From the IMG/VR virus record IMGVR_UViG_3300023443_000116, positions 1 through 50,895 of that record: 50,895 bases of DNA; one strand, given 5' to 3'. The position numbers and the translations under genes were made by a program. Source of the stretch: a virus (Duplodnaviria; Caudoviricetes). A model generated the notes under the pieces. It was not told where the DNA came from, did not search any database, and saw only the letters and a program-made list of their open reading frames with translations. The first letter of the stretch is position 1. Each line of letters opens with the position of its first letter. This document shows, in pieces, positions 20,422-22,853 of the stretch.

Positions 20422-21183
20422 TTATAAGTAGCGCATCATGAATACCGCAGGAAAGAAATCCAGTCTCCCTATTTCAATTCCAGTACCACGCAGGATTGTA
20501 ACACAGTTATTGCTTATCAATCTATAGGGTTGTCCAAGTTTAATGCCCAACATCTTACCGAAATCAGGGGGAGGTTTTATCTGTACCAACCTTCCCTGTT
20601 TTAATATCTTATGTTTAATGGGCCGCTTCTGATAACCGTCAAGACCTCGTTTGAAAAAATAATGCTGCCCAAGGTGAACCACTGCAACGTGAGATGTTGG
20701 GGCTCCTGTGAGCGATATAAATATATCTCGAACATTTTTAGGTTTCCTGAAGAATAAATAGGTGTTTAACGGGCTGTAGAGAGCCGTGGGACGTGATAGG
20801 AAGTTTTTATGTATCATACCAAGCCAAAGTAAAGGAAGGGCTATGTATGGCACTGACAGCGGTAAAAAATAATTCCGGTTAAACCAATAGGCATAACTGG
20901 GGTCATCAGCGTAATAGATAGCAAATTGCAAATATACTCTAGCAAGACCGTCTATAATCTCCATTGAAAGCCAGATCAGGGCAATGATTATCATAAATGG
21001 TTGTTTAATATATTTTAAACAAACCCAGAAAAGAAGAAAAGCCGGAATAATATTATCTAAAATCCCGGCTGTTATTGCAGTATGGAGTTGGGCATAATTC
21101 TCAACAGGAAATAAAAGATATAAGTTTTCTAATCCTATCTGAACTATGATTAGCCCAAGAAGTATTTTAGTCGGGCGGTCCAC
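20422..21183 (-). CDS. Multi-TM membrane protein with C-terminal permuted papain-like (PPPDE/LRAT-type) domain
   Basis: About 4 TM helices, then SHVAVV..G.HY.F and GQPYRLISNNC; likely GTG start at 21183 overlapping the peptide gene. Confidence 0.75.
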   Translation of the reverse strand: MDRPTKILLGLIIVQIGLENLYLLFPVENYAQLHTAITAGILDNIIPAFLLFWVCLKYIKQPFMIIIALIWLSMEIIDGLARVYLQFAIYYADDPSYAYWFNRNYFLPLSVPYIALPLLWLGMIHKNFLSRPTALYSPLNTYLFFRKPKNVRDIFISLTGAPTSHVAVVHLGQHYFFKRGLDGYQKRPIKHKILKQGRLVQIKPPPDFGKMLGIKLGQPYRLISNNCVTILRGTGIEIGRLDFFPAVFMMRYL

Positions 21184-21358
21184 AGCTAGGAGGGCACGTT
21201 GGCGAGTGCAATTGAATTGTCGCCATGTTTCCACAGACTAAGTTTATCCATTCTTCCCATTCCGGGTGAGCCTCCCTTTCGTCTTCGGGATAATGTGCGT
21301 TTTCAAAAGCCTCACAAAGTTTATCAAGAGCTTTCGTTAGTTTTTCATGTCGTGTCAT
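21167..21358 (-). CDS. 63-aa peptide ending SPTCPPSCGPPD (candidate precursor)
   Basis: AAAGGA RBS; own promoter; overlaps the peptidase start. Confidence 0.75.
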   Translation of the reverse strand: MTRHEKLTKALDKLCEAFENAHYPEDEREAHPEWEEWINLVCGNMATIQLHSPTCPPSCGPPD

Positions 21359-21389
21359 TGTTATTATCCTTTCTTAGTTGAGGATTTCT

Positions 21390-21418
21390 ATACTACCGTA
21401 GGTTATGTTATAAAACAA
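21390..21418 (-). promoter_or_regulatory. Candidate promoter for the peptide/peptidase pair
   Basis: TTGTTT-N17-TAGTAT. Confidence 0.45.
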
Positions 21419-21420
21419 CC

Positions 21421-21546
21421 TTTGGTGTAGTTAGAATTGGTGGCGACGCATCTATTCAGGCATCATCCCATGTCCGAGGAGTTGTTACTTACTTAGCTCG
21501 AAAGCTACGCACTATGCCTTATTCGCCAACTTAATGGACCACCAAA
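21421..21546 (-). ncRNA. Candidate structured ncRNA
   Basis: Nested stems TTTGGTG/CACCAAA, TGGCGA/TCGCCA, AGGCAT/ATGCCT and TAGCT-TTCG-AGCTA. Confidence 0.55.
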
Positions 21547-21549
21547 TAT

Positions 21550-21846
21550 CTATACAGACACCTCGGGATTAGTTGACGCACGGAATATGTCCGTTGTTTT
21601 CCCATTGCTGTTTTCAACAATTATCTTGTCAGCACATCCTTCAAATTCCCAAAGAGTGTGGTCCTCTTTCGCATAACAAGCAGTTGTTATATCTATTTGC
21701 TTTATCTTGCCACCATCATTTGCGTCTTTAAAAAAGAATTCTTGACTGCTTGGACTGTCAGAGCCAGCCTCATGGGCACCAGTGTTATAAGAGATGGCTT
21801 CATAAGTCCGTTGTTGGTTAACGCTATAGGCTTTAATCGTAAACAT
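21550..21846 (-). CDS. Conserved hypothetical protein (MFTIK...IIVENSNGKT)
   Basis: AGGAG RBS; recognisable phage family pattern. Confidence 0.75.
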   Translation of the reverse strand: MFTIKAYSVNQQRTYEAISYNTGAHEAGSDSPSSQEFFFKDANDGGKIKQIDITTACYAKEDHTLWEFEGCADKIIVENSNGKTTDIFRASTNPEVSV

Positions 21847-21886
21847 AGTCTTCTCCTTGTTTCTTCTGTTTTCTTGTTTCTAGTTA

Positions 21887-22075
21887 CTATCTCGTCATAC
21901 TCATGAACATCATAGCCAATAAAGCACCTAAAATCAATAATATGATGGAAAGCTTACCATCCATGTGAGCCATCTTCTTTTCAAGTTTGTTAAATTCAAT
22001 AGCCCACGCATCCCAGATTACATCAAAATGCTTGTGCATCGGGCCTTTGGAAAAGTCTGGTTTCTTGAAAGTCAT
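21887..22075 (-). CDS. Coiled-coil plus C-terminal TM protein (XhlA/holin-like)
   Basis: Heptad segment followed by a hydrophobic tail. Confidence 0.65.
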   Translation of the reverse strand: MTFKKPDFSKGPMHKHFDVIWDAWAIEFNKLEKKMAHMDGKLSIILLILGALLAMMFMSMTR

Positions 22076-22083
22076 AAATACTC

Positions 22084-22410
22084 CTAACGTTCACAATTTA
22101 TAGGTGGATAATTAAGCCTGAATAGAATATCAACAAGCTTATCTTGTTCGTCACGGGAAAGTGGAAATCTTTTGATGCACACTTTATCTTTATAAAAACC
22201 GTAGTCTTCTAAATCGAACCGCCGCTGGGTGCGGATTTGTTCCTCTTTAATGGGGTTTACTTCTTGGGCAATAGCACCAGTCAGTTCAGTTTGGGTCGTT
22301 GTGTTCTCATCAATAACCGTTTGAAGCTGGAAGTACCCCAAGATTGCTGCAACAATAACCCCGATACCAACGCCTCCGCCTACCTTTGTTCCTTTGGATA
22401 AAGTCATCAT
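22084..22410 (-). CDS. N-terminal TM protein
   Basis: GGGVGIGVIVAAILGYF; two Cys in the C-terminal part. Confidence 0.65.
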   Translation of the reverse strand: MMTLSKGTKVGGGVGIGVIVAAILGYFQLQTVIDENTTTQTELTGAIAQEVNPIKEEQIRTQRRFDLEDYGFYKDKVCIKRFPLSRDEQDKLVDILFRLNYPPINCER

Positions 22411-22853
22411 GGTACCGGTGCCTCCAGATTAGCCCAGGATACAAGACCGGACCTAGCCGTTCCTGTTCCTGAAACAGTAAAGGTGAATTTCATTCTTAAA
22501 TCTGCGTAATCAGTAATTGAATCCGCCTCAGTTGCAGTAAGGGTTTCGTTTCTTTCTCTCCAGTTTGAAGAGATATTAGTATGAGTTCGCGTTGCCCGCG
22601 TAGTTACATTTTCAATCAGTTCAACCTGTAGAGCCAGTGTCCTCCCAGCATTAGCATTTTTCTTATAGGCATAGTTCAAAACATGACCAAGACTTGTGGT
22701 GGGGTCAGTGATTGTCGTAAGTCCAGCCTCAAAGGTAGCTATCGTAGTTTCTTCCAAAGGAAGGATGTGACTGATGATGAAATCACTGTCATCTCTGGTA
22801 GCTTCATTAATGTCTGTCCAGGTGCCTCCCCAGCCTACCACTACCGTAGCCAT
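22407..22853 (-). CDS. Fibre-tip/jelly-roll-like protein (possible C-terminal part of a split gene)
   Basis: WTDINE...DDSDFI...ITDYADLR; downstream of the fibre gene. Confidence 0.65.
   Translation of the reverse strand: MATVVVGWGGTWTDINEATRDDSDFIISHILPLEETTIATFEAGLTTITDPTTSLGHVLNYAYKKNANAGRTLALQVELIENVTTRATRTHTNISSNWRERNETLTATEADSITDYADLRMKFTFTVSGTGTARSGLVSWANLEAPVP

Follow-up and report, generated by a model that had tools for sequence, protein, structure and literature searches.

A putative structured RNA, bounded by a closing helix and carried as a rare, portable unit by uncultivated phages

The antitoxin RNAs of type III toxin–antitoxin systems consist of tandem direct repeats, with units of ~34-36 nt, that lie upstream of the toxin gene with a terminator between the two. 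Hammerhead, twister and hepatitis delta virus (HDV)-like ribozymes are compact, helix-closed, accessory units that occupy variable intergenic sites of phage genomes in the sense orientation, and the RNase III sites between T7 genes, as well as the mobile promoter/stem–loop cassettes of T4-type phages, are simple interrupted hairpins, usually multi-copy and with little sequence conservation. Here, we describe an element of ~115 bases that looks like a real, conserved folded RNA as judged by sequence comparison. It lies on the minus strand of IMG/VR record IMGVR_UViG_3300023443_000116 (hereafter the window), a viral genome record that is complete at 50,895 bp and carries direct terminal repeats, and it directly follows an open reading frame (ORF) of 98 amino acids (MFTIK...). 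The nearest published category is that of the candidate structured RNAs (csRNAs) of IMG/VR viruses, described as 10,006 motifs, 14 of which immediately precede large-terminase genes (Fremin et al. 2023, PMC10690425). Like the csRNAs as they are described there, the element is an intergenic structured motif of uncultivated phages found by comparison; the likeness to the published motif set was judged by description only. One of its three copies, on contig L066, lies 8 nt before the large terminase gene (terL), within the 25-nt distance used in that paper, whereas the copies in the window and on contig L002 do not. Full-text literature searches yielded general surveys only and no description of the element. 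With the Rfam orphan phage motifs, such as drum and skipping-rope, it shares the status of a structured RNA carried by phages to which no function is assigned, and it matches no Rfam 15 family. The element is best filed as a new, very rare orphan structured phage RNA with an unusual, cassette-like mobility.

Counterparts of the unit at 21434-21548(-) of the window (81-84% identical) lie on two further contigs of uncultivated phages, at L002:3305-3420 and L066:3471-3585, with unit lengths of 115, 116 and 115 nt in the three copies. Contig L002, a viral contig, bears a relative of the 98-amino acid protein (78% identity), and the element follows 3 nt after the stop codon of that gene. The copy on L066, a viral contig of 4.7 kb, was found by a pattern scan with an 18-mer taken from the element. 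As the copies in the window and L002 share their context, the three represent two independent contexts. The copies were aligned (alignment A2, 117 columns), and a covariance model, R1, was built from the alignment. When R1 was run on the window with cmsearch, the element was the sole match (120.6 bits, expectation value (E) 7e-28), the next best scoring 10.6 bits (E 1.6). One copy was present in each of three records, and none was found in five related records. Pattern scans of viral contigs, gapped or exact (n = 5), returned 63, 2, 2, 9 and 29 stretches, among which the only genuine copies were those of L018/L002 and L066. The remaining pattern matches showed no extended similarity by blastn, by eye or with R1 (0 matches at E up to 1 over 27 loci) and were rejected. 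Scans of metagenomes and of genomes each returned one and the same 5,031-bp contig, in which the match falls inside a 231-amino acid ORF and was attributed to chance, and a 26-nt stretch of a 117-kb viral contig (L040:117-141), 96% identical to hairpin P5 and the 3′ strand of helix P3 (Table 1) with nothing beyond, was taken as coincidence. The element had no blastn match among GenBank phages, and R1 gave no match (E up to 1, default filters) in 79 loci around the TerL relatives of L066, taken from the best 80 of 303. As judged by these searches, the family has three known members and is very rare.

In the fold predicted from the alignment, a 7-bp closing helix, P1, would be followed by helices P2 and P3, which are split by strictly conserved unpaired stretches and would lead to a junction with a variable hairpin, P4, and a conserved hairpin, P5. 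Standard pairs fill 94.4% of the 89 cells of this model in A2, against 26-46% with the 3′ partners slid by 1-3 columns, and the number of pairs changed on both sides (5) was reached by 9 of 500 column shuffles, although this shuffle and slide control is not a probability. Outside the variable hairpin there are two compensatory changes: the last pair of P3 (col35-col87) is U-A in the window and A-U in L002 and L066, and the outer pair of P5 (col70-col84) is C-G in L066 as opposed to U-A in the other two copies. Six of the seven P1 pairs are invariant and one varies between U-A, U-G and C-A; two one-sided changes in P2 keep pairing. The site of P4 holds a different hairpin in each copy, with 9 bp in L066 and, in L002, 7 bp with one mismatch by eye or an uninterrupted stem of 4 bp when scored. 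G-U pairs occur in P1 (L002), in P2 (window and L066) and in P5 of every copy, and they are compatible only with the strand running sense to the flanking genes.

Invariant columns make up 70 of the 111 between columns 4 and 114, with 28/35 and 27/32 in the two core blocks versus 7/34 in the P4 segment, and conservation of the core exceeds that of the adjacent coding ORF, which is 81% identical between the window and L002. No reading frame is shared on either strand, as judged by six-frame translation; stops of all three kinds occur in the window copy and the frame shifts across P4 between L002 and L066. The same translations ruled out that the ORF continues by read-through into the RNA or that the RNA itself holds a small ORF. 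Possible pseudoknots, CCAU/AUGG (between J1/2 and the 3′ side of P5) and UCC/GGA, involve invariant columns only. Taken from these comparisons, the element appears to be a conserved, helix-bounded non-coding unit with defined borders.

Several observations weigh against a conserved fold. The comparison holds only three sequences, of which those of the window and L002 share their context and two come from the same sample series. P1, P3 and P5 are nearly invariant, so that most pairs are uninformative, and P2 contains one mismatch in L002 and one gap in the window. A 5-bp hairpin occurs in 48% of random 34-mers, which makes the retention of P4 weak and leaves only the 9-bp hairpin of L066 as a noteworthy case. 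Folding energy is no better than that of shuffles for the window and L002 copies (z -0.5) and modest for L066 (z -1.6), and recent transfer among co-occurring phages, in place of selection, could account in part for the identity of ~81%.

Table 1. Features of the window locus and of the structured unit; alignment columns are those of A2
Feature	Window position	Strand	Alignment columns	Basis or remark
98-amino acid ORF (MFTIK...)	21550..21846	-		ORF list; stop TAG at 21550-21552; Shine-Dalgarno context
Conserved helix-closed structured RNA unit	21434..21548	-		Alignment and covariance model R1
P1, 5′ strand (UUGGUGG)	21539..21545	-		Starts 4 nt after ORF stop; pairs with 21437-21443
P1, 3′ strand (CCACCAA)	21437..21443	-		Proximal partner in all three copies
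P1			4-10 with 108-114	Tested model
Distal CACCAAA	21421..21427	-		Alternative P1 partner in this phage only; not conserved in L002 or L066
J1/2 bulge, (U/C)CCAUUAAG	21530..21538	-		8/9 positions invariant
P2, 5′ strand (UUGGCG)	21524..21529	-		Invariant; pairs with 21444-21448
P2, 3′ strand	21444..21448	-		Most variable part of the core; 2/6 columns invariant
P2			20-25 with 102-107	Tested model
2-bp extension			28-29 with 96-97	Tested model
P3, 5′ strand (AGGCAU)	21514..21519	-		Alignment and sequence check
P3, 3′ strand (AUGCCU)	21458..21463	-		Alignment and sequence check
P3			31-35 with 87-91	Tested model
P4 hairpin (UAGCU-UUCG-AGCUA)	21494..21507	-		In hypervariable segment (columns 36-69; 7/34 invariant)
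P4			42-46 with 51-55	Tested model
P5 hairpin (UCC-U-CG GACA UG GGA), invariant loop	21466..21480	-		Alignment; absent from the initial annotation
P5			70-75 with 80-84	Tested model
J3/2, GAAUAGAUG	21449..21457	-		Invariant; holds invariant AUG at 21449-21451
Stem TTTGGTG/CACCAAA	21421-21427 / 21540-21546	-		Sequence check
Stem TGGCGA/TCGCCA	21441-21446 / 21523-21528	-		Sequence check
Stem AGGCAT/ATGCCT	21458-21463 / 21514-21519	-		Sequence check
Accessory block, approximate (Shine-Dalgarno, 98-amino acid ORF, RNA and ~40 nt)	21391..21886	-		Absent from relative L078
Spacer to next gene, 75 nt	21359..21433	-		Unlike L002 except for the ribosome-binding region
Downstream 63-amino acid ORF (MTRHEKL...)	21167..21358	-		Conserved in L002 and L078
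Downstream 270-amino acid ORF, no known family	20422..21234	-		Served to find related phages

The observation made from the window alone is unremarkable by itself and, as far as sequence comparison goes, gains its meaning through the two homologues. The initial annotation had described the 98-amino acid ORF, a first stem beginning 3 nt after its stop codon (TAG), and a structured RNA of ~126 nt built from three nested stems and an inner hairpin. The ORF and the distance were confirmed, and the listed stems and the TAGCT-TTCG-AGCTA hairpin are all present in the sequence. Taken alone, these stems are not more than chance, because the minimum free energy (MFE) is at the level of shuffles (z-scores: 138-nt minus strand, 0.00; plus strand, -0.70; 115-nt core, -0.51) and the same nesting is reached in 17 distinct regions of the 50.9-kb genome; three nested perfect 6-bp stems were found in 12 of 2000 dinucleotide shuffles of the segment. 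A conserved structured element does follow the ORF, and is likewise present downstream of the protein homologue on L002, but the conserved unit measures ~111-115 nt and not ~126 nt. The AGGCAT/ATGCCT stem, predicted from one sequence before any homologue was at hand, passes the compensatory test as P3. The outer TTTGGTG/CACCAAA stem had to be replaced, as the homologues use the proximal CCACCA(A/G) and not the distal CACCAAA, and the register of TGGCGA/TCGCCA is not kept: a shifted P2 fits all three copies, apart from the mismatch and the gap given above.

That the element is no terminator was borne out. No terminator-like site lies on it, and it lacks the GC-rich hairpin directly before a U-tract that defines an intrinsic terminator; the three terminator-like sites detected in 20900-22500 fall neither on the element nor between or after the ORF and the element. 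Among the three copies, only that of L066 is trailed by UUUUUAUU. No sigma-70-like promoter was found on the element, and no promoter or terminator of its own at any of the three loci. A search of Rfam, orphan phage motifs such as drum and skipping-rope included, had been proposed, and no family matches the element: Rfam 15 at the gathering score gave 0 matches over the whole window, relaxation to E up to 10 over 21100-21900 gave two weak matches that both fall within the ORF (21631-21752) and none on the element, and E up to 1 gave 0 matches in L080-L082, the L066 copy included. ARAGORN detected 0 tRNA or tmRNA genes in the window.

The distribution of the element among related phages points to two levels of mobility. 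A complete relative of the window phage, L078/G003 (48,975 bp, with terminal repeats), whose counterpart of the neighboring 270-amino acid protein is 75% identical, joins the equivalent upstream gene to a 61-amino acid gene in 29 nt, and neither the 98-amino acid ORF nor the RNA was found in its whole genome. Since this relative joins the flanking genes without either, the ORF and the RNA appear to form a moron-like accessory block of ~490 nt, in keeping with the proposal that they are carried as a moron. The sequence TAGAAA borders the block on either side (21877-21882 and 21385-21390), and the empty site of L078 has it once (~3830), a weak repeat given that a 6-mer match at such junctions is a ~1-in-10 event.

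On L066, the RNA lies in the sense orientation between an Sf6-type small terminase gene (terS), which has a hairpin/U-run, and a large terminase gene confirmed by Pfam. Here P1 ends 8 nt before the terL start, which was fixed by the 94%-identical L082 (in-frame TAA 15 nt upstream). The window and L066 are similar only within the bounds set by P1; outside them, the two contexts are 63-64% identical, which is the background level. The RNA is absent from two contigs with a TerL 94% identical to that of L066, and it is sense to its neighbors in both independent contexts. As the L066 copy lies between terS and terL and homology stops at P1, the RNA is, on sequence comparison, portable in its own right. 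It would be a unit defined by its closing helix, exchanged between phages with edges at P1 and independently of the 98-amino acid protein, and not the dedicated partner of that gene.

Other features of the terminase region were observed alongside. L082 contains at 1230-1312 a three-way junction of 83 nt closed by a 12-bp stem (MFE -37.1, z -4.94, matched by 0 of 200 shuffles) and at 1371-1446 a 76-nt helix-closed element (z -2.4) that sits exactly at the position of the L066 RNA; neither insert has an Rfam match at E up to 1. The terS-terL gap looks like a docking site for interchangeable structured inserts. On L066 and L082, the inserts that precede terL are bordered by the sequences TTTATT / TATTAT, and these junction repeats, like TAGAAA, may reflect microhomology-mediated acquisition or chance. 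The terL start, ATGTTTAAAAAG, is without a Shine-Dalgarno sequence in three contigs (L066:3591, L081:1501 and L082:1501), whereas other genes of L066 have strong ones. Directly upstream of the small terminase gene of L066, ~450 nt upstream of the RNA, an ORF with a GIY-YIG domain (L066:2467-3018; Pfam E 2.1e-6) likely encodes a free-standing homing endonuclease.

Presence/absence polymorphism at both sites in close relatives would also be expected if the unit had no function at the RNA level and were simply DNA exchanged by illegitimate recombination, or a small hairpin-forming mobile DNA, with stems that are fortuitous or act as DNA. The short direct repeats at the junctions (TAGAAA; TTTATT / TATTAT), the series prefix shared by the names of the contigs that carry relatives of the element (L002/L018, L066 and L078) and of L082, the unremarkable folding energy and the abundance of such stem nesting in the genome are all consistent with this explanation. 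With regard to the terminal inverted repeats and target-site duplications of miniature inverted-repeat transposable elements (MITEs), P1 is a 7-bp inverted repeat and 6-bp direct repeats lie near the junctions, with no true empty site for the RNA alone. MITE-like repeats, however, are multi-copy and occur in either orientation, whereas the element is single-copy in each record, with three copies in all collections scanned, and is sense in both independent contexts. The 'terminal repeat' amounts to just 7 bp, and the junction repeats are short enough for chance. Strongly uneven conservation within 115 nt, with a core above the level of a coding ORF, would be unexpected for neutral DNA, and the two compensatory changes and strand-specific G-U pairs argue for pairing in an RNA. 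We therefore consider exchanged or mobile DNA without an RNA function unlikely, while treating it as the most serious of the competing explanations.

The close spacing of ORF and RNA had been interpreted in the initial annotation as a dedicated pair, i.e. a ribonucleoprotein, a type III-like toxin–antitoxin or an anti-competitor module, in which the protein would bind or cut the RNA made downstream of its gene. The RNA starts 3 nt after the ORF stop in two of the three RNA-bearing loci, ORF and RNA occur together in the window and L002 and are both missing from the complete relative G003, and the orphan protein has fold relatives only among uncharacterised small phage proteins. As in ToxIN, AbiQ/antiQ and CptIN, a small protein gene stands beside a non-coding RNA in a mobile context. 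The arrangement is nevertheless the reverse of type III systems, with the RNA downstream of the gene and no terminator between them, and Tandem Repeats Finder (21100-22100, minimum score 30) returned 0 arrays, unlike a type III antitoxin. The window and L002 count as one evolutionary instance; in L066 the RNA occupies the terS-terL gap, and the 4.7-kb fragment, which covers ~10% of a genome and not the rest of that phage, encodes no homologue of the protein; and homology ends at P1 and not at the ORF. The protein has 98 amino acids, is acidic and matches no defence family, ToxN/AbiQ included, and the RNA is also found without the protein gene alongside. A dedicated protein–RNA pair, the central claim of that annotation, is accordingly given little credence here.

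The protein itself offers few clues. Its ORF is preceded by a strong Shine-Dalgarno site (AAGGAG). Among 5.8e9 clustered sequences only three such proteins were found, including itself, with the relatives at 78% and 51% identity, and an exhaustive HMMER pass over 1.84e9 representatives returned only its own cluster. No match was obtained in Pfam, PHROG, NCBIfam or PADLOC, and a sequence search of the PDB gave nothing below E 0.69. A feature-based search of a protein atlas gave matches that scored below 0.9 and count as leads at most. An AlphaFold2 model was beta-rich with a mean predicted local distance difference test score of 73. The best fold match of this model was an uncharacterised phage protein in BFVD (E 1.6e-5, template modeling score 0.69/0.78), and its PDB matches (Z <= 4.2) were rated as noise. 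No ToxN/AbiQ/CptN fold was among these PDB matches, although a missing match does not exclude the fold. The isoelectric points of the three homologues are 4.72 (window), 5.05 and 4.98, all acidic, which is unusual for RNA binders. As judged from its sequence, the protein is an acidic orphan, and nothing suggests RNA binding or nuclease activity.

The layout of the element resembles that of the phage ribozymes. The unit is helix-bounded, context-independent, sense and intergenic; it is accessory, passes between phages and combines extended invariant single-stranded regions ((U/C)CCAUUAAG, GAAUAGAUG and the P5 loop) with a dispensable variable hairpin. Such a unit could represent a small self-cleaving ribozyme of a new class, one that would cleave the polycistronic mRNA at its own junction. 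There is, however, no sequence or structure match to hammerhead, twister, HDV-like or any other known class (E up to 10 for the window and 1 for L066), known ribozyme classes have many more members than the three copies found here, and nothing in the data speaks to catalysis, so that a new ribozyme would be an improbable outcome. Context independence, 5′ and 3′ ends that form a closing helix, and conserved loops could also belong to a small RNA that is stable and acts in trans, for instance as a decoy, regulator or anti-defence RNA, cut from the late mRNA and protected by its closing helix, and the accessory distribution is one that anti-defence genes often have. Against such an RNA stand the lack of a promoter or terminator of its own and of any complementarity of at least 12 nt elsewhere in the phage genome, where 11-nt matches numbered 4 versus ~2.5 expected; the antisense searches, which covered the phage genome, stayed at chance level. 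We regard a trans-acting RNA as hardly likely.

The reading that we tentatively prefer, with less than even confidence, is that of a cis-acting mRNA element. As no promoter or terminator of its own exists at the three loci, the element would be made as part of a late mRNA; it would presumably be transcribed within a polycistronic message in the same direction as its neighbors. The embedding is tight: in the window and L002 the element follows a stop codon at 3 nt, and in L066 the terL start comes 8 nt after it. The folded domain at the cistron junction could set the fate of the message, through the translation start of the next frame and/or through processing and end protection. In the window and L002, a terminating ribosome 3 nt away would open P1, and in L066, P1 and P2 would overlap the ribosome landing zone 8 nt before the start codon. 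The invariant AUG of J3/2 reads into the downstream gene in two of the three copies: that of L066 shares the reading frame of terL and precedes the terL start by 8 codons, and that of L002 opens 42 codons that end in an ATGA overlap with the next gene. The covariation-supported P2/P3 model leaves this AUG free, whereas the MFE folds of L002 and L066 pair it (CAUU/GAUG) and re-pair UUGGC with GCCGA on the 3′ side of P3. Two mutually exclusive pairings that free or bury an invariant AUG would provide the logic of a switch. Folding in vivo and an effect on translation or stability would follow if this account is right.

A number of points count against a cis-acting role and its translational form. 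In the window copy, the AUG frame is shut after 6 codons, 72 nt before the next start, and as a consequence the translational reading fails for this copy. These phages use strong Shine-Dalgarno sites, yet none stands before the conserved AUG, and the alternative pairings sit in invariant columns only. The downstream start lies at no fixed distance (8, 75 and 106 nt), and the downstream genes are unrelated.

Known cis-acting elements resemble the unit in part. With riboswitch and operator leaders it has in common a conserved, helix-closed junction core, a variable peripheral hairpin and an AUG that is exposed or buried by alternative pairings. It differs from them in having no constant downstream gene (the 63-amino acid ORF in the window and L002, terL in L066), no constant spacing (75, 106 and 8 nt), no Shine-Dalgarno sequence before the AUG and no shared or terminator-type platform. 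The RNase III sites of T7 and the T4-type cassettes are also structured elements at cistron junctions, some of them tied to gene-cassette shuffling; from these the element is set apart by a branched 115-nt fold, its single-copy occurrence and long invariant unpaired stretches. A more ambitious variant, in which the helix-bounded travelling cassette would constitute a new functional RNA class, either a novel self-cleaving ribozyme or a portable translational switch with its own start codon, seems rather improbable.

In the window, a minus-strand gene block extends from ~50 kb down to 19 kb and includes large tail-region ORFs, an endolysin-like ORF (PHROG 894) and a TerL-like ORF. The best GenBank phage match of the last is only 41.7% identical, for which reason the window phage appears to have no close cultured relative. 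The element is situated in the tail/lysis region, after the moron gene. The order of genes in the window and L002 is a small upstream gene (62 amino acids in the window), the 98-amino acid gene, the RNA, the 63-amino acid gene and the 270-amino acid gene. The 75-nt spacer that follows the RNA in the window has 66% identical aligned columns in comparison with L002, i.e. the background level. The 270-amino acid ORF has 10 homologues, none of them from a cultivated source; conservation is high in its C-terminal half, with 48 invariant columns, it adjoins the lysis genes, and Pfam and PDB-sequence searches gave no match. Read by eye, its product may be a membrane protein. A second TGGCGA...TCGCCA inverted repeat, with 14 nt between its arms and the same hexamers as the second stem of the initial annotation, was observed at 21200-21225, inside the overlap of the 63- and 270-amino acid ORFs and ~220 nt downstream of the element.

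Should the fold prove real, the element would add a compact and tractable orphan RNA to the few structured RNAs that move between phages without a protein gene. Strict conservation of the junctions, a dispensable hairpin and borders defined by a helix are features through which ribozyme and riboswitch classes have been discovered before; if the unit is merely exchanged DNA, the finding would be an ordinary one. The locus also offers what appears to be a clean example of the assembly of a moron-like block from a gene plus an RNA cassette, and the terS-terL gap of one phage group seems to host interchangeable structured inserts.

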